NCBI GenBank assembly: GCA_963774265.1 | Contig: CAVZDU010000007.1 | Span: 64,001 to 128,000, forward strand | Source of the DNA: an uncultured Chloroflexia bacterium | GTDB lineage: Bacteria; Chloroflexota; Anaerolineae; CG2-30-64-16 | Length of the DNA stretch: 64,000 nt | Direction: 5' to 3' | Shown here: piece by piece, positions 32-29,438 of the stretch | Layout of the letters: each line of letters starts with the position of its first letter | How positions within the stretch are numbered: position 1 is the stretch's first letter | The notes under the pieces: model-generated | Database searches by the model: none | The model's input: the letters and a program-made list of their open reading frames with translations, nothing else | Told to the model about the DNA's origin: nothing | Position numbers and translations under genes: made by a program

Positions 32-676
32 GTGTCGGGCGCGGGCGGTGGCGACCTTATGGGGAGCCTCCTGGGCAGCCTGCTCGGGGGCGGCGGGACG
101 TCGGGGACGAGCCCCGCTCAGCAAGCGCCCGGCGCGGGCAGCGGCGACCTCCTGGGGAGCCTCCTGGGCAGCCTGCTCGGTGGCGGGATGACAGGAACGA
201 GTTCGTCTCAGCAGACTTCCGGCGCGGGCGGCGGCGACCTCATGGGCAGCCTTCTGGGCAGTTTGCTGGGCGGCGGCAGTGGCAGCAGTAGCGGCAGCGG
301 CAGCGGCGGCGCGGGCAGTTTGCTCGGCTCACTGATCGGCAGCTCGCAGGCCAGCAATAACGTTTCTCAGCAAACCGGTGTGGCGCCGAGCCTGGTTCAG
401 GCGCTGTTGCCGATGCTGATCGGCTTGCTGTTCCGTGGCGATAAGCGCTCCAGCTCACGCGGTGGGGGGATCGATATCGACGGCGATGGCATCCCGGACC
501 ACTCGGATGAACTAATGGCTCACATGCAGACCGTGCAACGGGGCGGCGACGTGGGTGTGAACGATGTCCGTTCCTCTGGTTACGTGCGTGCGCTTGCCAA
601 CCAGAGTGGATATCCTGTCGATGAGGTTGCCCCGGCGACCGTCAAGATTCTTCAGGTCCTGGCGCAGCAGCAATAG
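32..676 (+). CDS. Gly-rich repeat protein, DUF937/YidB-like C-terminus (probably 5'-partial)
   Basis: ORF with repeated GGGDLMGSLLGSLLGGG units, then VSQQTGVAPSLVQALLPMLIG and a DxDGDG motif; frame is open to the window edge. Confidence 0.6.
   Translation: MSGAGGGDLMGSLLGSLLGGGGTSGTSPAQQAPGAGSGDLLGSLLGSLLGGGMTGTSSSQQTSGAGGGDLMGSLLGSLLGGGSGSSSGSGSGGAGSLLGSLIGSSQASNNVSQQTGVAPSLVQALLPMLIGLLFRGDKRSSSRGGGIDIDGDGIPDHSDELMAHMQTVQRGGDVGVNDVRSSGYVRALANQSGYPVDEVAPATVKILQVLAQQQ
38..277 (+). repeat. three ~57-bp coding repeats at ~90-bp period
   Basis: ggcgcgggc(g/a)g(t/c)ggcgacct...ctgggcag...ggcgg at about 38, 131 and 221. Confidence 0.8.
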
Positions 677-722
677 GCAAGGTCCGCGAAAACTAAAGTC
701 ATCACACGATGAGACCTGACGC

Positions 723-757
723 AAGACCTTCGAGGTTTTAAATACCTCGAAGGTCTT
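723..757. repeat. perfect 14-bp inverted repeat (REP-like palindrome or terminator hairpin)
   Basis: aagaccttcgaggt-tttaaat-acctcgaaggtctt, intergenic. Confidence 0.7.
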
Positions 758-812
758 CGCATTTCGCGCCCGATTTTGGCTGACCTATAGCCGCGCGGTG
801 TATACTGGCCCG

Positions 813-2585
813 ATGACCAATCGCGAGTTCCGCCTCGAGCACGAGCATCGCTACGACCGCCGGGGGCCGGTCCGGTGGATCCTTTCACACCTCGCGCGCT
901 ATCCGCATTTTCCGCTCCTGGCGCTTCTCGCAGCCACCTTCAACAACTATTTCTACAGCCAGATCCAGGTCAACATCGGTCGGGCGTTCGACTTGATCTC
1001 GACGCCTGGTTGGTCGCGCGGCGCGCTCGCGAGCCTGGCGTTTCTATCGGTCGGCATCGCGCTCGGTCAGGGCACCACTGGGCTGTTGCGCAACTACTCG
1101 GTCGAGTTTGTCGCCGCGCGGATCGAGCGGGACGCCCGCGACGAATTGTATGCCAGCCTCTTGGGCAAGAGCCAGACCTTCCACAACCGCCAACGCATCG
1201 GCGACATTATGGCGCGGGCCACGAACGACGTGAAGATGCTGAACCTGATGTTCAGCCCCGGGTTGATGTTGCTGCTCGATTCGGCGATGGCGGTGGTCGT
1301 GCCGCTGGTTCTCATCGCGCAGATCGACACCCGGCTCCTGCTCGTGCCCGCGTTCTTTCTCGTGGGGCTTGGCCTGACCATCCACGATTATAACCGGCGG
1401 CTCAATCCGGTCAGCCAGGAGATTCGCGAGAAATTCGGCGTGATGAACGCAGGTCTGGCCGAAGCGATCGCGGGTATCGAGGCGGTCAAGTCGAACGTTC
1501 AGGAGCGCTACGAGTGGCTGAAGTTCACGGGCGACGCCCGCAAGGTGCGCGACCTGAACGTGCGCCAGGGCGAAGTGCAGGCACGATATTGGCCGACGCT
1601 GGTCTTTGCACTGGCGTGGGCCGCATCGCTGCTGCACGCGCTGTTGCTCTGGCGCGCGGGCGACCTGACGCTTGGCCGGGCCATCGCCTACCTGGGGCTG
1701 GTAGGCACGCTCCGGTTCCCGACGAACATATCGATCTTCAGCTTCAACCTCGTACAGCTTGGCGCCGCAAGCGCGAGGCGCATCCTTGAGACGATCAACA
1801 CCGAAACCGAGCTTGACGAAAACCCGCGGGGCGTGGCACAGCCGATTCGCGGGCAGGTGCGGTTCGAAGACGTGGGGTTTGGCTATGGCGCGAACGGCGT
1901 CGATGTGAACGGGGCGGTGTTGCACAACGTCAACTTCACCGCGCGTCCGGGCGAGACCATCGCCATCGTCGGGCAGACAGGCTCCGGCAAGTCGACGCTT
2001 ACCCGGCTGATCAATCGCATTTTCGACGTCGATCGTGGTACCGTCACCGTTGACGATATCGATGTGCGTGACTGGAACCTGGAATCACTGCGCTCCCAAA
2101 TCTCCTTCATCGAGCAGGATCCTTTCTTGTTCTCGCAGACGCTGCGCGAGAATATCGCCTTTGGCAGGCCTGATGCAACCGACGATGAGATCGTTGGCGC
2201 AGCCCAGGCTGCGCAGGCGCATGACTTCATCATGAGTTTCAAGGATGGCTATGACACGGAGGTGGGCGAGCGGGGGGTGACCCTTTCGGGCGGCCAGAGG
2301 CAGCGGATCGCCATTGCGCGGGCGTTTCTCACCGATCCGCGCATCCTGATCCTTGATGACAGCACCAGCGCCATCGATAGTGCGACAGAGGATCAGATCC
2401 AGCGCGCGATGCGCCGCATCAGCAGCGCGCGAACCACGTTTCTCATCACCCACCGGCTCAGCCAGATCCGGTGGGCGGATCGTATCCTTGTGCTGCGGCG
2501 GGGCGAACTGGTGGACCAGGGCACGCATGAGGAGCTCCTGGCGCGCTCGCCGGACTATTGCCGTATTTTTGCCAGGTGTAACTGA
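813..2585 (+). CDS. ABC exporter, fused permease/ATPase (heterodimer subunit 1)
   Basis: TM domain, Walker A GQTGSGKS, LSGGQ signature, degenerate Walker B ILILDD. Confidence 0.95.
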   Translation: MTNREFRLEHEHRYDRRGPVRWILSHLARYPHFPLLALLAATFNNYFYSQIQVNIGRAFDLISTPGWSRGALASLAFLSVGIALGQGTTGLLRNYSVEFVAARIERDARDELYASLLGKSQTFHNRQRIGDIMARATNDVKMLNLMFSPGLMLLLDSAMAVVVPLVLIAQIDTRLLLVPAFFLVGLGLTIHDYNRRLNPVSQEIREKFGVMNAGLAEAIAGIEAVKSNVQERYEWLKFTGDARKVRDLNVRQGEVQARYWPTLVFALAWAASLLHALLLWRAGDLTLGRAIAYLGLVGTLRFPTNISIFSFNLVQLGAASARRILETINTETELDENPRGVAQPIRGQVRFEDVGFGYGANGVDVNGAVLHNVNFTARPGETIAIVGQTGSGKSTLTRLINRIFDVDRGTVTVDDIDVRDWNLESLRSQISFIEQDPFLFSQTLRENIAFGRPDATDDEIVGAAQAAQAHDFIMSFKDGYDTEVGERGVTLSGGQRQRIAIARAFLTDPRILILDDSTSAIDSATEDQIQRAMRRISSARTTFLITHRLSQIRWADRILVLRRGELVDQGTHEELLARSPDYCRIFARCN

Positions 2586-4417
2586 TGGGTTTCATTCTGG
2601 ACGGCCTTGACAGCGAGGCCTACGACCGCAACTACAGCGACCGAGAGCTGGTGCGTCGCGTGCTCGGCTACTTCTGGCCGCATCGCAAGCGGCTGGTGCT
2701 GGTTGCGGCTGCGATCTCGCTGAACTCCCTTGCAGGCAGCGGTGGGCCGATCCTGATCTCAGCCGGCATCGACCTGATGGCGCGCAATCCGTCGACCGCG
2801 GCGATCGCGCTCCTGGCCCTTGGTGTGCTGCTTCTCGGCGCGGTGGCATGGGTCTTCAATTTCATCCAGCAGTGGTTCTCGGCGCGCGTTGTGGGCGATG
2901 TGGTTTTGAAGATACGCGAGGACGTGTTTGCGGCGACCATGCGGCACGATATGTCGTTCTATGACGAGCATCCCTCGGGGAAGGTGGTCAGTCGCGTCAC
3001 ATCGGATACGCAGGATTTGTCCGAGGTGGTCACACTGACCACGAGCCTCCTGAGCCAGATCATGCTGGTGCTGTTCCTGGCCGTGTGGCTGCTCACCATC
3101 AATGCGCGCCTGACGTTGCTGCTGTTGGTCATGGCGCCGGTTGCCGCGGCCTTTGCGTTGAGCTTTCGCCGGATTGCGCGCACGGTGACACAGCGCGCGC
3201 GGCGCGTCACCGCGAAGATCAACGCGCAAATCCAGGAGTCGGTGAGCGGGATCGTGGTTGCCAAGAGCTTCCGGCAGGAACGCGCGATCTATGCAGCGTT
3301 CGCCGCGAACAATACCCAGGCGTACGGCGTCGTGCTGCGCCGCGGGCTGACGCTGGACACGATCTTCCCGATCATCGGCGCGTCATCCGGAATTGGCGTT
3401 GGGGTGCTGGTCTACTTCGGTGGGCTGGCGACCCTGCCGCCCGGGAATATTTCCGTCGGCAATTGGTACCTGTTCATGCAGGCGGTGGGTTTCTTCTGGT
3501 GGCCGATCATCGGCATCGCATCGTTCTGGAGCCAATTCCAGGATGGGCTGGCCGCCGCAGAGCGCGTGTTTGCCCTGATCGATGCGGAGCCGAAGGTGGT
3601 TCAAACAGCAAATAACCCGGCTCCCCAGCTGAGCGGCCGCATTGAGTTCCGTCGCGTTCACTTTACCTACACGCCGAATGCAGAGGAGCAGCGGGGGGGC
3701 GAGATTGTCCTGCCCGACTTCAGCCTGCAGATCCGGCCCAAGGAGACGGTGGCGCTGGTCGGCCACACGGGCGCAGGCAAGAGCAGTGTGGCCCGGCTGA
3801 TCGCGCGCTTCTATGAGTTTCAAGGCGGGGAGTTGCTGGTGGACGGCCGTGATATTCGTTCGTTGGATCTTGCGGATTACCGCCGGCAGATCGGCATCGT
3901 GCCACAGGAGCCGTTCCTCTTTTCAGGCACGCTGCGCGAGAATATCCGGTATGGGCGGCCCGATGCGAGCGATCCCGACGTCGAAGCAGCCGCACGCCGT
4001 GTCGCCGGCGGCGAGTGGGTGGCCGACCTGCCGAATGGGCTGGACACCGACGTTGGCGAGCGCGGCGCCAGCCTGTCCATGGGCCAGCGGCAGCTGGCGG
4101 TGTTAGCGCGGGTGGTTCTCAAGGACCCAGCCATCTTCATCCTGGACGAGGCGACGGCCAGCGTCGACCCGTTCACCGAGGCGCAGATCCAGGACGGACT
4201 TGAGGAAATCATGGCCGATCGGACCGCCATCGTGATCGCCCACCGGCTGTCCACGGTTCAAGCAGCAGATCGCATCGTCGTCATGGACGGTGGGCGTATC
4301 ATCGAAGAGGGCAACCATGACTCGCTCATGGCTGGCGGAGGGCATTACGCCACCCTGTACGACACGTATTTCAGACACCAGTCCTTCGCGTACATCGAAA
4401 GCTCACGGCCCGGTTGA
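2585..4417 (+). CDS. ABC exporter, fused permease/ATPase (heterodimer subunit 2)
   Basis: Walker A GHTGAGKS, LSMGQ, FILDEAT, IAHRL; coupled to the upstream gene by TGATG. Confidence 0.95.
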   Translation: MGFILDGLDSEAYDRNYSDRELVRRVLGYFWPHRKRLVLVAAAISLNSLAGSGGPILISAGIDLMARNPSTAAIALLALGVLLLGAVAWVFNFIQQWFSARVVGDVVLKIREDVFAATMRHDMSFYDEHPSGKVVSRVTSDTQDLSEVVTLTTSLLSQIMLVLFLAVWLLTINARLTLLLLVMAPVAAAFALSFRRIARTVTQRARRVTAKINAQIQESVSGIVVAKSFRQERAIYAAFAANNTQAYGVVLRRGLTLDTIFPIIGASSGIGVGVLVYFGGLATLPPGNISVGNWYLFMQAVGFFWWPIIGIASFWSQFQDGLAAAERVFALIDAEPKVVQTANNPAPQLSGRIEFRRVHFTYTPNAEEQRGGEIVLPDFSLQIRPKETVALVGHTGAGKSSVARLIARFYEFQGGELLVDGRDIRSLDLADYRRQIGIVPQEPFLFSGTLRENIRYGRPDASDPDVEAAARRVAGGEWVADLPNGLDTDVGERGASLSMGQRQLAVLARVVLKDPAIFILDEATASVDPFTEAQIQDGLEEIMADRTAIVIAHRLSTVQAADRIVVMDGGRIIEEGNHDSLMAGGGHYATLYDTYFRHQSFAYIESSRPG

Positions 4418-6533: not shown

Positions 6534-7322
6534 TTACTGCCTCGTGCTGAAGTCCGCTGCCCCATATGCCGGTGTCTGCGGGAAACGCACCGTTACCCGG
6601 TCCTGGTAGTCGATGTCGATCGTCCCACCTTCGAGGCTGCACTCCAGCAGGTGGCCCGCGACCTGCCTGTCATCCGAGAGGAAATGCAGATGATATCCGG
6701 GTGCATTCAGCGAAGATAGATACTGCGGAAACCACCAGCCCACGAGGGTCCCGCGGATATCCCCCTGCTCCCAGGTGACCTGCTGGGCTATGACGTCAGC
6801 CAGTGGAGGAAAGGGCTCGCTCTGCCGGGGTATGCTTCGGAACTTGACATACGAGAACCTGCCGTTCAGCCTGATGGCATAGGGCCGGTTGGCCGGCGGC
6901 GCCACCTTTGCCAGATAGTCCTTGAGCAGGTCGTAGCTCGCCAGCGGCGCGGCCAACTCCAGGTGCTGCTCAGGCCAAAAGAAGGTCACGGTGGCGAAGG
7001 GCGTCTCCAGGCTGTTGCCGGCGACGAGCACAGACCCGTCGGAGCGCGCCTGATAGAACTTCCCGTCGAGCGCGATCATCTCGCCGTCCATACCGTCGAA
7101 TGTGCCGATACCAAAGTTGCCCGCCTGCGCCAGTTGGGCGTAGGTCACATCTCCGTCGTACAGCCCCCGCTCCAGCGCAGGGTAGGTGGAGATCTGCGTG
7201 ACCTCATTCGCGGGCGGTGGCAGCGCAGTGCAGCCGGCCAGCATGACCAGGGCGGCGGATAGGGGGATCAGAAATCTGCGCGAGGTGCTCCTGATCGACA
7301 GTCGTAGGGCGAGCTTCGGCAT
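6534..7322 (-). CDS. budA: alpha-acetolactate decarboxylase with lipoprotein signal
   Basis: GNFGIGTFDGMDGEMIALDG, GYHLHFLS and GHLL Zn-binding motifs; LAGC lipobox; GAAGGAG RBS. Confidence 0.9.
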   Translation of the reverse strand: MPKLALRLSIRSTSRRFLIPLSAALVMLAGCTALPPPANEVTQISTYPALERGLYDGDVTYAQLAQAGNFGIGTFDGMDGEMIALDGKFYQARSDGSVLVAGNSLETPFATVTFFWPEQHLELAAPLASYDLLKDYLAKVAPPANRPYAIRLNGRFSYVKFRSIPRQSEPFPPLADVIAQQVTWEQGDIRGTLVGWWFPQYLSSLNAPGYHLHFLSDDRQVAGHLLECSLEGGTIDIDYQDRVTVRFPQTPAYGAADFSTRQ

Positions 7323-7562
7323 TGGACCACTCCTTCTCCCTGACCCGGTGCTGTTGAAGGCGTCGTACGTGGTGGCCACAGGACGACCCCAGTGTAGAAC
7401 CGATGCCCCGTATGCACAAACTCCAGGCCATGCTCGCTCGTAGGTCAACTGGTGCGCGCCACGATTCATGGCCGTCATGAAGAAGGGGTTTGGCACTCAC
7501 TCAGGGGGGATTGAAGAAGCCTCTGAATCATGTTGTCCGTCCCAGATCGTCGCATCAGGCGG

Positions 7563-8261
7563 CTAAATATGGCTGCCGCCGCTCTCCACCCAGGCATCGG
7601 CAGTGATGCGATCGTCGTCCAGGCGCAGGTGGGCCATTGAGGCTTCGAGGGACACCACGCGCGCAGTCAGATGGCGAAAAAGCTCAGTGTTCGGGTCGGG
7701 CAGACGATCGTGCTGCAGGTCGATCCCCTCGTGTTCGGGCATATCGCCGTTGCGGCTTTTGATGCGGCCGGGTATGCCCACCACCACCGAGTACGCGGGC
7801 ACGTCCTTCACCACGACTGAGTTCGCACCAATGCGACTGTGCGCGCCGATGATAATGGGACCCAACACCTGTGCACCCGCACCCACGACGACGTGGTCCT
7901 CCAGCGTCGGATGACGTTTGACCTTTTCCCAGCTCACCCCGCCGAGGGTGACGTTGTGGTAGAGCGTCACATCGTCGCCGATCTCCGCCGTCTCGCCGAT
8001 CACGGTGCCCATGCCATGATCGATGAATAGACCGCGGCCGATCTGCGCGCCCGGGTGAATCTCGATGCCCGTCAGAAAGCGGGAGGCGTTGCTCACGAAG
8101 CGCGCCAGCCATTTGAAGCCGTTGCGCCATAGCGCGTGGCTGATGCGGTGCATCCACACAGCGTGCAGTCCCGGGTACAGGAAAACGATCTCCCAAACGG
8201 ATCGAGCGGCTGGGTCCCGGTCAATCACCGCCTGGATATCTTGGCGCATTGTTACTAACAT
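7563..8261 (-). CDS. cysE: serine O-acetyltransferase
   Basis: DPAARS...[27 protein letters not shown], hexapeptide repeats. Confidence 0.97.
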
Positions 8262-8317
8262 AGTCATCACCTCGGCGGCCTGGGGCAGGGCCCCAGGCCG
8301 AGTTACGAGATTGGAAC

Positions 8318-9277
8318 CTAACCTTCCAGGTCGGCGAACAGCACCGTGCTGAGATAGCGCTCGCCATTGGATGGAATGATCACCACGATGCGCTTGCCGG
8401 CGTTCTCAGGCCGGAGCGCGACCTGGATGGCCGCATGGACGGCAGCACCCGAGCTGATCCCCACCAACAAACCCTCCTCGCGCGGCAGCCGCCGTGCCAT
8501 GGCAATCGCCTCGTCATTTGTTACCTTCACGGTCTCATCAATCAGACTCGTGTCGAGGACAGCCGGAATGAACCCCGCGCCGATACCTTGAATCTTGTGC
8601 GGACCGGGTTGACCGCCGGAGAGCACCGGCGAGTCGGCCGGTTCCACCGCGATGATCTTCATGTTTGGCAAACGATCCTTCAGCGCCTGGCCCACACCGG
8701 TGAGTGTGCCGCCCGTGCCGACGCCCGATACCAGGAAATCGAACTTCCCGCCCGTATCGCGCCAGATCTCCTCAGCCGTCGTCCGGCGATGGATTGCCGG
8801 GTTGGCTGGGTTTTCGAATTGCTGCGGGATAAAATAGCGGCTGTCTGCATCTGCAAGCTCGTTCGCCTTGCGGATTGCACCCTTCATGCCCTCGCTGCCC
8901 GGTGTCAGGATCAATTCGGCGCCGTAGGCACGCAGCAGCTTGCGCCGCTCCAGGCTCATTGTCTCCGGCATCACCAATGTGCAGCGGTAGCCTTTGGCCG
9001 CAGCCACCATCGCCAGGCCGATGCCCGTGTTGCCGCTGGTTGGTTCGAGAATGATCGTATCCGGCCCGAGCTTGCCCGCGGCTTCGGCCGCCTCGATCAT
9101 GCTGAGTGCAATACGATCTTTCACGCTGCCGCCCGGATTCTGGAACTCCAGTTTGGCCAATACCTCGGCGGTGCTATTTTTTGTGACGCGGTTCAACCGC
9201 ACCAACGGCGTATTGCCGATCAATTGCGAAACGTCACCCACGATGCGGGGGGCAACGGTGGTTTCAATAGCTGACAT
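8318..9277 (-). CDS. cysK: cysteine synthase A
   Basis: [11 protein letters not shown] (PLP lysine), PTSGNTG, GVGTGGT, HKIQGIG, ERYLST. Confidence 0.97.
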
Positions 9278-9327
9278 GAGTGGTCTCCTTCACGTTACAG
9301 TCTTGTGTTTGAGTTTCGGATGCAGAC

Positions 9328-9404
9328 AAATAAAAAGACTCACCTGGGCGGATGCGCCCTGCGATGAGCCTCTAGCGACCATGCTATCCGGGTCAGGTGA
9401 GGTC
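9328..9404 (-). terminator. attenuator terminator in the cysK leader
   Basis: Minus strand: GACCUCACCUG ... CAGGUGAGUC followed by UUUUUAUUU, ~50 nt before the cysK start. Confidence 0.65.
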
Positions 9405-9503
9405 AGTCCTCGCCTTCGCCCTCTAACGGTTCAGCCTTGTTTCAACGCGACCCATCGCAGCCTGCCGCGGTGGTTCAGCGGACGTGGGTGGCGCCCTGCC
9501 AAC

Positions 9504-9563
9504 TCACGCCCGCTCAAGACACGAGCACGCGCGTGCAACGGTTTGCTGAACGGTATTTTTCAC
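9504..9563 (-). CDS. putative cys leader peptide MKNTVQQTVARACSCLERA
   Basis: AAGG RBS, GTG start, 19 codons including TGC-TCG-TGT; lies between promoter and terminator. Confidence 0.65.
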   Translation of the reverse strand: MKNTVQQTVARACSCLERA

Positions 9564-9582
9564 AGTTTTACCTTGTGAAAAT

Positions 9583-9611
9583 ATCCTACCCGACGATGCG
9601 CCAGAAGTCAA
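9583..9611 (-). promoter_or_regulatory. sigma70-type promoter of the cys leader/cysK-cysE operon
   Basis: TTGACT-N17-TAGGAT. Confidence 0.75.
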
Positions 9612-9618
9612 GTAAGAA

Positions 9619-10020
9619 TTACACCATGTTGACGTCGAGGTCATTATAGCGGAAGGCGTTGAGTGTGGGTTGGCTTCGGTCGGCCAGGCTGCAAATCAGG
9701 TAAACTGCGTCGGGATAGGCGGCACGCTCGATATCGGTCTCTGAGGGGACGGCGGGACCTTGTGGGTGGGAATGGTAGATCGCGACGAGCTCCAATCCAG
9801 CTTCCTCAAATTCGATCTGTTTTGCCAGCGTTTCGATGTCGAGTTCGAAGGTAGCGCGCGGCGTGGCAGAGACGTTACGACCGGCATGTACGGTCACGGC
9901 GACGCCATCTATTCCCGAGACAAGGCCGCAGACTTCCTCAGGATAGCCTGCCTGCGCGTGAGCGATGATCTGCTCAGCCAATTCGGGTGACAGATAGAAT
10001 GAGCCTGCGTTCGTCACCAA
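9619..10020 (-). CDS. JAB/Mov34 (M67) metallopeptidase, Mec-like
   Basis: PEEVCGL and IYHSHP...PSETD JAMM motif. Confidence 0.9.
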   Translation of the reverse strand: MVTNAGSFYLSPELAEQIIAHAQAGYPEEVCGLVSGIDGVAVTVHAGRNVSATPRATFELDIETLAKQIEFEEAGLELVAIYHSHPQGPAVPSETDIERAAYPDAVYLICSLADRSQPTLNAFRYNDLDVNMV

Positions 10021-10655
10021 GCCCTGCCGGTCAGATGGGGATTCGTCTGCCGTTCAGCTCCCACAGTGCTACTCTCACCATGCCCTGACAGGATGACATA
10101 ATCGTCAGGGAGGGTCAGGATTTCCCTCCGGATGCCGTTCAAGAGCGTATCAAGGTCGCCACCATGGAGGTCAGAACGGCCGATGGAGCCGGCAAACAGC
10201 GCATCACCCGTGAAGGCGCGGCGGCTCGCGTGGTCCACCAGGGTGACGCCTCCGGGGGAATGGCCTGGCGTGAGACGCACTTCGAGGGCGATATCACCAG
10301 CTTCAACCGTTTCGCCCGGTTTCAGGTCCTTGTCGATCGTGGGCGCTTCGCCCGGATCGTAGCCCAGCCAGGAGATGCAGGTGCGCCGCATGGCCACGAC
10401 CAGGGGGAGGTCGGCATGGTGAAGATAGAATGGTGCGCCCGTCTCCTCTTGCAGCACGCGACAAGCCAGGAGGTGATCGAAGTGACCGTGGGTGCCGAGG
10501 ATGCGCGCAAGCTTCAAGTCGTGGCGTCTGAGGCTGGCAAGGATGGCGTCCGGCTCGTCGCCAGGATCGATGACGATGGCTTCGTGCGTGCGCTCGCAAC
10601 CAAGCATGTAGCAATTCGCCTGCAGCATACCAACGGGCAGCGTATCGAGTATCAA
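10014..10655 (-). CDS. MBL-fold metallohydrolase (glyoxalase II-like)
   Basis: THGHFDH, TPGHSPG, FTGDALF, GHG. Confidence 0.92.
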   Translation of the reverse strand: MILDTLPVGMLQANCYMLGCERTHEAIVIDPGDEPDAILASLRRHDLKLARILGTHGHFDHLLACRVLQEETGAPFYLHHADLPLVVAMRRTCISWLGYDPGEAPTIDKDLKPGETVEAGDIALEVRLTPGHSPGGVTLVDHASRRAFTGDALFAGSIGRSDLHGGDLDTLLNGIRREILTLPDDYVILSGHGESSTVGAERQTNPHLTGRAW

Positions 10656-28919: not shown

Positions 28920-29438
28920 TTACGGAACTGGCTCCGGCGCGGCCAGCAGCCCGGCGAGCGCCGCGCTGTGCCGGAGCATGTAGCGCTCGCGAAAGTCGTC
29001 GTACTCCTCCGCGGTCATCTCATCCCCCCGCACGATCTTCCAGTTTGGCAGTGGACCTTCGGGCAGCGGCGTCCGGTCTTTTGGGCCCGCGATCTCCAGC
29101 CGTGCGCCCATTTGGCGCAGCACGTACAGCATGCCGAACAGGGCATGCGCCGTGTCCCGCGGATAGGCCGCCTCCAACAGCAGCATCCAGCGGCTGCCGT
29201 CGCCCTTCAGATCGGGCCGCGGGTCGGTCCAGGGCGGGTCCGGGTCGGGCCGGATGTGCACGGTGAACTTGCCGGCCAGGTAGTCGAGCAGGCCCGACTT
29301 CTGCGCTGCGATGGTCGCGGCCAGCTCCGGCGTATGGGCGCTCTCCGCCGCGTTAATCTCCAGGCGGCCGCCGTCCGCGCTGATGACCACGCCCAGATCG
29401 CACAGCACGGCCAGCAGGACCCCCAGATCCTCGATCAT
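28920..29438 (-). CDS. hypothetical protein with TubC N-terminal docking-like domain (primase-associated)
   Basis: LCDLGVVISADGGRLEINA...TPELAATIAAQKSGLLDYL pattern; coupled to the primase gene. Confidence 0.55.
   Translation of the reverse strand: MIEDLGVLLAVLCDLGVVISADGGRLEINAAESAHTPELAATIAAQKSGLLDYLAGKFTVHIRPDPDPPWTDPRPDLKGDGSRWMLLLEAAYPRDTAHALFGMLYVLRQMGARLEIAGPKDRTPLPEGPLPNWKIVRGDEMTAEEYDDFRERYMLRHSAALAGLLAAPEPVP

Follow-up and report, generated by a model that had tools for sequence, protein, structure and literature searches.

The window analysed here, 64,000 nucleotides (nt) of contig CAVZDU010000007.1 (GenBank assembly GCA_963774265.1, positions 64,001 to 128,000) from an uncultured Chloroflexia bacterium, carries a leader upstream of the cysteine synthesis genes cysK and cysE. 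Judging from sequence and from comparison with relatives, we consider it probable that this leader is a classical ribosome-mediated transcription attenuator that senses cysteinyl-tRNA (Cys-tRNA). On these grounds it has four of the five sequence-level features of an attenuator, and the window leader itself also has the antiterminator. The parts of the leader, their conservation, the covariation of the OFF-state helices and the link to cysteine genes in two types of operon are direct observations. An earlier reading of this stretch from its letters alone had placed a promoter, a ribosome-binding site, a short upstream open reading frame (uORF), a hairpin over its stop codon, a 12-bp pairing and a terminator with a U-tract in this region; sequence inspection, scans and folds find all of them exactly there.

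Parts of the window leader and the proposed switch

All leader coordinates refer to the 64-kb window and to its minus strand. The features, in the order of transcription, are:

9583-9611 (-): sigma-70-type promoter TTGACT-N17-TAGGAT, with the -35 box TTGACT at 9611-9606 and the -10 box TAGGAT at 9588-9583, from the sequence and a consensus scan
9571-9574 (-): weak Shine-Dalgarno (SD) sequence AAGG, 7 nt 5' of the GTG start; anti-SD duplex of -4.0 kcal/mol
9504-9563 (-): leader uORF MKNTVQQTVARACSCLERA plus TGA, with a GTG start at 9563 and 19 sense codons
9520-9541 (-): segment 1, the putative anti-antiterminator, made of uORF codons including Cys-Ser-Cys; from the minimum free energy (MFE) fold, an RNAalifold helix and covariation counts
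9477-9514 (-): hairpin P, enclosed by segments 1 and 2, with the uORF stop TGA in its 5' arm
9449-9469 (-): segment 2, whose 5' part pairs with segment 1 and whose 3' part CUGCGAUGGGUC (9460-9449) is the candidate antiterminator
9373-9448 (-): variable spacer from segment 2 to the terminator, not alignable among relatives
9328-9372 (-): intrinsic terminator, a bulged G+C-rich hairpin (segments 3 and 4; 9372-9335, -21.7 kcal/mol) followed by UUUUUAUUU
8318-9277 (-): cysK, O-acetylserine sulfhydrylase, the first gene after the leader, with its ATG at 9277 (Pfam PALP, E 2.7e-82)
7563-8270 (-): cysE, serine acetyltransferase, the second gene (Pfam Hexapep and SATase_N)

The promoter is one of two promoter-like sites that the consensus scan called in 1.4 kb (the mean for shuffled sequence is 0.6), and the 20 nt between the end of its -10 box and the GTG hold the predicted transcription start. 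An in-frame ATG 106 nt upstream of the GTG and a TTG in the -35 box were rejected as uORF starts, since neither lies downstream of the predicted promoter. The two cysteine codons, TGC (9527-9525) and TGT (9521-9519), are separated by the Ser codon TCG (9524-9522). Two cysteines among 19 uORF codons compare with 0.71% of codons in 32 long open reading frames (ORFs) of the window.

Segment 1 (9541-9520) pairs with 9469-9452 of segment 2 in a duplex of -26.2 kcal/mol, and the 5' arm of the enclosed hairpin P starts 5 nt past the second Cys codon. The earlier model lacked an anti-antiterminator; sequence and covariation indicate that this role is taken by the uORF itself, through its pairing with segment 2. 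For the antiterminator, CUGCGAUGGGUC (9460-9449) matches GGCUCAUCGCAG (9370-9359) over 12 bp including two G-U pairs, as found by hand and with RNAduplex. The energy of this 2:3 duplex (RNAduplex, -21.9 kcal/mol) is equalled by 6 of 200 shuffled leaders. In the terminator the U-tract reads U5AU3, and UUUUUAUUU runs to 9328. A simple terminator scan of the leader region called none, because its rule accepts only unbroken stems with loops of 3-8 nt and the window stem is bulged. The fold of the whole leader is more stable than those of its shuffles (z = -3.0, 0 of 200 as good). The SD sequence of cysK, about 40 nt past the terminator, is unpaired with the leader, which points to control of transcription rather than translation.

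Two further sequence matches accompany these elements. The spacer contains CUCACCUG (9394-9401, -), which is fully complementary to CAGGUGAG (9339-9346, -) in the 3' arm of the terminator, a possible extra competing pairing judging by its sequence. GCAGGGCGC is present twice: at 9499-9491, where hairpin P has its loop region, and at 9362-9354 within the terminator.

From these parts we propose the following switch. Transcription would start about 13 nt before the 19-codon uORF, and segment 1, including UGC-UCG-UGU, would pair with segment 2 around hairpin P, sequestering the GCGAUGGG block. When cysteine is plentiful, the ribosome would pass both Cys codons, stop four codons on and leave; the 1:2 helix would persist or re-form, the terminator (segments 3 and 4) would fold, and transcription would end at about 9328, before cysK-cysE. 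When cysteine is scarce, the ribosome would stall on the Cys codons, covering segment 1 and the 5' arm of hairpin P; the free segment 2 would then bind the 5' arm of the terminator (12 bp) once that arm emerges, no terminator would form, and cysK-cysE would be transcribed. The 1:2 helix would form while segment 3 is still 90-170 nt away from being transcribed, and segment 2 would be kept free only by a ribosome on segment 1. Translation of the uORF, ribosome stalling, the order and kinetics of folding and the response to cysteine are the elements of this scheme that we infer. A hairpin serves as a polymerase pause site in the trp leader, and by analogy the invariant hairpin after the Cys codons may be a pause site that couples ribosome to polymerase.

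Conservation and operon context among Chloroflexota leaders

Species-representative genomes were scanned with the window CysK protein, which yielded 80 loci; the distributions reported here rest on this choice by CysK similarity. The closest loci, with CysK 72-84% identical, come from Anaerolineae, Anaerolineales, Caldilineales and other Chloroflexota metagenome-assembled genomes (the window CysK reaches 84% identity to Anaerolineae CysK), and the remaining ones are chiefly from Betaproteobacteria and Actinomycetota. Seventeen of the 80 loci carry Chloroflexota names (L001-L009, L012, L014, L020, L021, L030, L036, L044 and L080). In all 80 loci the 630 nt upstream of cysK were searched for short ORFs with C-x-C, where x is any residue.

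A Cys-x-Cys uORF followed by a hairpin and a terminator was present in 13 of the 17 Chloroflexota-named loci, with one further locus (L030) doubtful, and in none of the other 63. Lack of conservation of the uORF or of its Cys codons would have counted against the sequence-only reading; both are instead conserved, and they also head a different cysteine operon in L007 (see below). L006, L008 and L036 are without the element; the sequence of L036 covers only 287 nt upstream. The uORFs, by the form of their cysteine motif, are:

CSC: L001 ..LICSCL stop; L002 and L003 ..NTCSCL stop; L009 ..HACSCL stop
CSC with longer tails: L004 ..ARACSCFERA stop; L005 ..FTCSCLERV..
CMC: L014 MLTCMCLGRGM stop; L021 ..LNCMCPGRGR stop; L080 ..ACMCICLGQGRR..
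CLC: L020 ..TCLCLRRAL stop
CLLCVC: L012 ..CLLCVCTGRG..
CAC: L044 ..RCACPRRG..
CTCIC: L007 MLPVVSVCTCICL stop
Doubtful: L030 ..QCLCS stop

At the nucleotide level, the motif TGC-N3-TGT-N4-RGCRGG occurs exactly in 12 of the 80 loci, all of them Chloroflexota-named (0 of the 63 others), and its only exact occurrence in the window is at the uORF. Allowing at most one mismatch gives five window matches against 1.98 expected; the one at 29167-29185 was rejected as a second leader, since it lies inside a 172-residue ORF and is not read there as Cys codons. We also built a covariance model from the 5' domain of eight leaders. Its strong matches were only its eight training sequences, L020 scored 18.8 bits (E 0.006), and the remaining weak matches were antisense or in non-Chloroflexota loci. 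The model found no second leader copy in the 64-kb window.

Signs of translation accompany the motif. In the Cys frame, all 15 leaders offer a start codon ahead of any stop, compared with 16 of 30 for the other two frames, and 11 of the 15 have an SD duplex at least as strong as -4 kcal/mol, compared with 7 of 30. Thirteen of 14 leaders have, 19-99 nt ahead of the uORF start, a promoter of the form TTGAC-N17-19-TAnnnT, with none found in L001. The predicted peptides span 11-36 codons and share only C-x-C and the next one or two codons. All 15 Chloroflexota leaders have C-x-C, with two or three cysteines each arranged as C-x-C(-x-C), and a third in-frame Cys codon is found in four (L007, L012, L080 and L030). 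The first Cys codon is TGC and the last TGT in 14 of the 15 leaders, a fixation at the nucleotide level; TGT is the rarer Cys codon in the window (26 of 102). The uORF of L005 (2675-2785) has 36 codons and reads past CSCLE through hairpin P, so that its stop codon TGA falls inside the invariant GCGATGAG block. In the manner of the trp leader, a ribosome terminating there would cover the antiterminator.

The 5' domains of the window leader and its seven closest relatives (group 1, n=8) were aligned. Invariant columns comprise the two Cys codons, the 5' arm of the hairpin and part of its 3' arm, and GCGATG-G of segment 2, where GCGATG itself is kept in all eight. The GCGGG of the hairpin P 5' arm is kept in 12 of the 80 loci, all Chloroflexota-named, and the hairpin loop varies in both sequence and length. 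RNAalifold, run unguided, paired the Cys-codon columns (31-39) with the segment-2 columns around the nested hairpin, and added an outer helix between the uORF start and sequence past segment 2. In this OFF-state structure, which was derived from the same eight sequences and is favoured by that over the slid controls, 90% of cells are paired, compared with 32-46% when partners are slid by 1-3 columns, and 12 pairs are changed on both sides, compared with 0-5; none of 500 shuffles reached the observed values. Within it, the two helices of hairpin P (helices 4 and 5) have 92.5% and 84.4% of cells paired and five pairs changed on both sides. The alignment of cysK upstream regions that the sequence-only reading called for thus returned conserved Cys codons together with a covarying 1:2 helix and nested hairpin.

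At the terminator, CTCATCG and GATGAG are invariant in all eight group-1 leaders, and CUCAUCG lies 90-170 nt from the GCGAUG block among relatives. Segment 2 (GCGAUGRG) mimics the 3' arm of the terminator (G/CGAUGAG), which is the signature expected of competing helices. The antiterminator shows no covariation because all three partners are fixed. Energies in group 1 range from -16.3 to -24.2 kcal/mol for the 2:3 duplex, from -15.9 to -28.4 for 1:2 and from -13.5 to -25.5 for the terminators. RNAduplex matched the terminator 5' arm best to a stretch overlapping the GCGAUG block in six of the eight leaders, and the 2:3 duplex clearly beats shuffled leaders in five (0-6 of 200 shuffles as good). 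Six more distant leaders (group 2) also have a hairpin about 5 nt past the last Cys codon, and five of them have a clear terminator with a U-tract. The architecture 3' of the Cys codons differs between the two groups, and C-x-C is constant. In L014 the terminator 5' arm finds its best partner in the 3' arm of the post-Cys hairpin, which would make a plain four-segment design; this was rejected, as 31 of 200 shuffles equal it.

Downstream of the leaders, 15 of the 16 Chloroflexota loci examined have a cysE-like Hexapep protein after cysK, with SATase_N also matched in six. The exception is L007 (Caldilineales, 238-3951), where a carbonic-anhydrase-like ORF takes this place and the motif lies 2.7 kb upstream of cysK. 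Its leader is complete, with promoter, uORF (MLPVVSVCTCICL and stop), hairpin, GCGAUGAG block and a terminator with U6, and it heads a ThiS-family gene, a ThiF/rhodanese gene, a second PALP (CysM-like) gene and cysK. Its gene content suggests a cysteine pathway of the sulfur-carrier (CysO) type that is controlled in the same way. Upstream neighbours vary among JAB (window, L002 and L003), Mrr (L005), subtilase (L004) and an M20 peptidase (L009). Given these varied neighbours and the L007 operon, the element goes with cysteine synthesis genes and not with one gene order.

In the window, the genes directly upstream of the leader are a metallo-beta-lactamase-fold and a Prok-JAB gene (9619-10655, -; Pfam), and the same pair stands upstream in L002 (1499-2580) and L003 (1576-2582). 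The JAB gene is co-directional with the leader, its stop codon precedes the -35 box by 7 nt, and a scan found no terminator-like site between it and the leader promoter. JAB/Mec-type proteins are tied to CysO-dependent cysteine synthesis in mycobacteria, and by analogy the JAB neighbourhood of the leader may be functional. On the other side, 66 nt beyond cysE and on the same strand, lies an alpha-acetolactate decarboxylase-family gene (6534-7496, -). S-adenosylmethionine (SAM, S-box) riboswitches scoring 84 bits were found near cysK of L012 (2418-2573, -) and L080 (5021-5140, +); both riboswitch and Cys leader therefore serve sulfur amino-acid genes there.

Weighing the attenuator against other explanations

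Several results weigh against the attenuator as described. The 2:3 duplex does not stand out from those of shuffled leaders in L004 (70 of 200), L002 (117 of 200) and L003 (121 of 200), and the alternative pairings sought in group 2 are heterogeneous and not above shuffles (10-182 of 200 across six leaders). A stalled ribosome was mimicked by a 28-nt mask on the second Cys codon with equilibrium MFE folding. The masked full leader flipped to the antiterminator in one of eight cases (L004), the other seven keeping the terminator. Transcripts ending after segment 3 formed 2:3 only in the window leader, with or without the mask, and a mask-dependent switch was seen in none of the eight leaders so truncated. 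The idea, already in the sequence-only reading, that stalling at the Cys codons switches termination is supported by comparative conservation, with masked folding against it. Since equilibrium folding does not reproduce the switch in most members, the case for it must, as in other attenuators, be made from the order of folding. The SD sequence is weak in the window (-4.0 kcal/mol), L007 (-3.7), L020 (-3.6) and L044 (-2.1), the terminator of L009 has a poor U-tract, and the derivation of the covarying structure from the tested sequences themselves belongs to the same side of the balance. The fixed choice of Cys codons shows, at the level of sequence, a constraint on the RNA beyond coding. Finally, the Ser codon, which had been linked to serine as the substrate of CysE, had to be given up as a meaningful feature: relatives have CMC, CLC, CVC, CAC and CTCIC, with Met, Leu, Val, Ala or Thr/Ile in its place.

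The codon constraint also raises the question whether the RNA itself is the sensor, with hairpin P and its flanks binding a ligand or a protein (a riboswitch or an RNA-binding-protein site) and the uORF incidental or auxiliary. UGC-N3-UGU and the GCGGG arm are invariant across both leader groups with fixed synonymous codons, the SD sequence is weak in 4 of 15 leaders, and the ribosome mask leaves the MFE structure unflipped in most members, all of which such a sensor would accommodate. It would not account for an in-frame start in all 15 leaders or for the extra in-frame Cys codons in four, and the conserved bases are confined to helices or Cys codons around a variable hairpin loop, with no aptamer-like multi-stem junction or conserved bulge. 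The post-Cys architecture, moreover, differs between the groups while C-x-C stays. No Rfam family, T-box included, matched the leader. Rfam 15 searched over window positions 8800-10200 with E up to 10 returned only NEAT1_2 at a meaningless E = 6, and at gathering score the only matches in the 14 related loci were the two SAM riboswitches, neither of them in a leader. These scans led us to reject known leader families as well as T-box and riboswitch identities; the UGGN of a T-box bulge would correspond to segment-2 UGGG in three of eight leaders, with UGCG or UGAG in the rest. We regard an RNA-only sensor as unlikely.

Somewhat less likely still is a uORF that is translated in a leader that is not cysteine-specific or does not act by termination, for example through general sensing of translation or through mRNA stability or processing, the terminator being a constitutive partial stop. 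Two regulatory codons are few, the alternative pairings are not significant in several members, and read-through transcripts may enter the leader from the co-directional JAB gene, there being no terminator-like site before the promoter. The cysteines, however, are the only conserved residues of the peptides, every regulated operon makes cysteine, and the Cys codons form part of the helix that locks up the antiterminator; translational sequestration is unlikely with the cysK SD sequence unpaired with the leader. Short ORFs and G+C-rich hairpins are common at about 60% G+C, and with the simple terminator scan reporting none, an ordinary 5' untranslated region with a spurious short ORF and a hairpin might come to mind. 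Such a chance combination is highly improbable, as blocks are kept across genomes whose CysK proteins are 72-84% identical and whose spacers are not alignable, the helices covary, and the exact motif occurs once in the 64-kb window and in none of the 63 loci without a Chloroflexota-type name.

Significance and comparison with known systems

CysB, CymR, T-box and S-box systems regulate cysteine synthesis in bacteria, as do the mycobacterial Cys uORFs. Its control is known for few bacterial lineages, and Chloroflexota is a large and mostly uncultured phylum. If ribosome-mediated attenuation is confirmed, it would provide a concrete regulator for cysK-cysE in Chloroflexota and extend leader-peptide attenuation to a new phylum and to a new amino acid with a true terminator. 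It would also supply a sequence signature for charting the cysteine regulon in metagenome-assembled genomes and flag unannotated ORFs of 11-36 codons that gene callers overlook. The leader is a testable candidate regulator in an understudied phylum, and the understanding of attenuation itself is unchanged.

A literature search, which did not cover the cross-phylum survey of Lopatovskaya et al. 2010, found nothing on how Chloroflexota regulate cysteine synthesis, no cysteine attenuator described in that phylum and no terminator-based cysteine leader peptide anywhere. According to passages of PMC2965389, leader-peptide systems had until then been known from Proteobacteria and Actinobacteria alone, and that paper adds Firmicutes. 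Where PMC4833913 names Chloroflexi, in the passages concerned, it is only as a group with too few genomes. Cysteine genes are still cited as translation-attenuated in part of PMC13236596.

A broader proposal, to which we give even weight for and against, is that this is the first terminator-based, cysteine-specific leader-peptide attenuator and the first family of leader-peptide attenuators of any kind described in Chloroflexota, common to Anaerolineae-like and Caldilineales genomes. The family would govern both the CysK/CysE route and the sulfur-carrier route (CysO/ThiS, MoeZ-like and CysM-like proteins). Its signature would be UGC-N3-UGU followed by the GCGGG hairpin, nested in the uORF-antiterminator helix. 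The sensitivity of the two-codon sensor may in addition be tuned by the invariant hairpin and the fixed rare UGU, which would act as a second layer in the form of a programmed polymerase pause or a slow-decoding site.

Like the classical attenuators (trp, his, leu, thr, ilv and phe in Proteobacteria; trp and ilvB in Actinobacteria), the leader has end-product codons in a short uORF, is predicted to form anti-antiterminator, antiterminator and terminator helices that exclude one another, and carries an intrinsic terminator ahead of the first structural gene. The classical mechanism is described in passages of PMC1262725 and the ilvB1 case in passages of PMC13236596. The Chloroflexota leader differs from these systems in its amino acid, cysteine, in its phylum, in having C-x-C rather than a run of codons, in the conserved hairpin nested in the 1:2 helix, and in the 90-170 nt spacer between segment 2 and the terminator.

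The Cys T-box and S-box (SAM) leaders of Firmicutes respond directly to uncharged tRNA or SAM and do without a uORF. They likewise place cysteine and sulfur genes under a choice between terminator and antiterminator in a 5' leader; unlike them, the leader described here has a uORF and matches neither T-box nor SAM families.

The sequence-only reading was right that Cys-codon uORF attenuation is known in Actinobacteria, with the qualification, from the published passages, that those uORFs lack terminators and act on translation. Parts of PMC1262725 predict terminator-less Cys leader peptides for Mycobacterium, P. acnes and B. longum, and parts of Canestrari et al. (bioRxiv 10.1101/834739) report that mycobacterial poly-Cys leaderless small ORFs (sORFs) act by unmasking an SD site. 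Poly-Cys uORFs that fit this published actinobacterial type were present about 200-360 nt upstream of cysK in three of our 80 loci, the Mycobacterium records L053 (..DCCCCCCR) and L055 (..HCCCHCC) and the "uncultured Actinomycetota" L067 (..DCCCRCC).

Both systems place a Cys-codon uORF before cysteine-metabolism operons, and in the mycobacterial case stalling is proposed, in the same passages, to melt a duplex that involves the uORF. The mycobacterial ORFs are, as far as those passages go, leaderless, have consecutive Cys codons and act on translation through the SD sequence of the next gene, with no terminator hairpins found. The Chloroflexota leader instead has a promoter 20 nt before the start codon, an SD sequence, C-x-C, a conserved terminator and a cysK SD sequence that is not sequestered. 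None of the three marks of the mycobacterial class (a leaderless start, at least two consecutive Cys codons, and SD sequestration without a terminator) was found in it, and the leader is outside the poly-Cys sORF class. The two kinds of Cys uORF apparently evolved independently: they follow the same sensor logic and differ in output, which would be transcription in Chloroflexota and is translation in mycobacteria.

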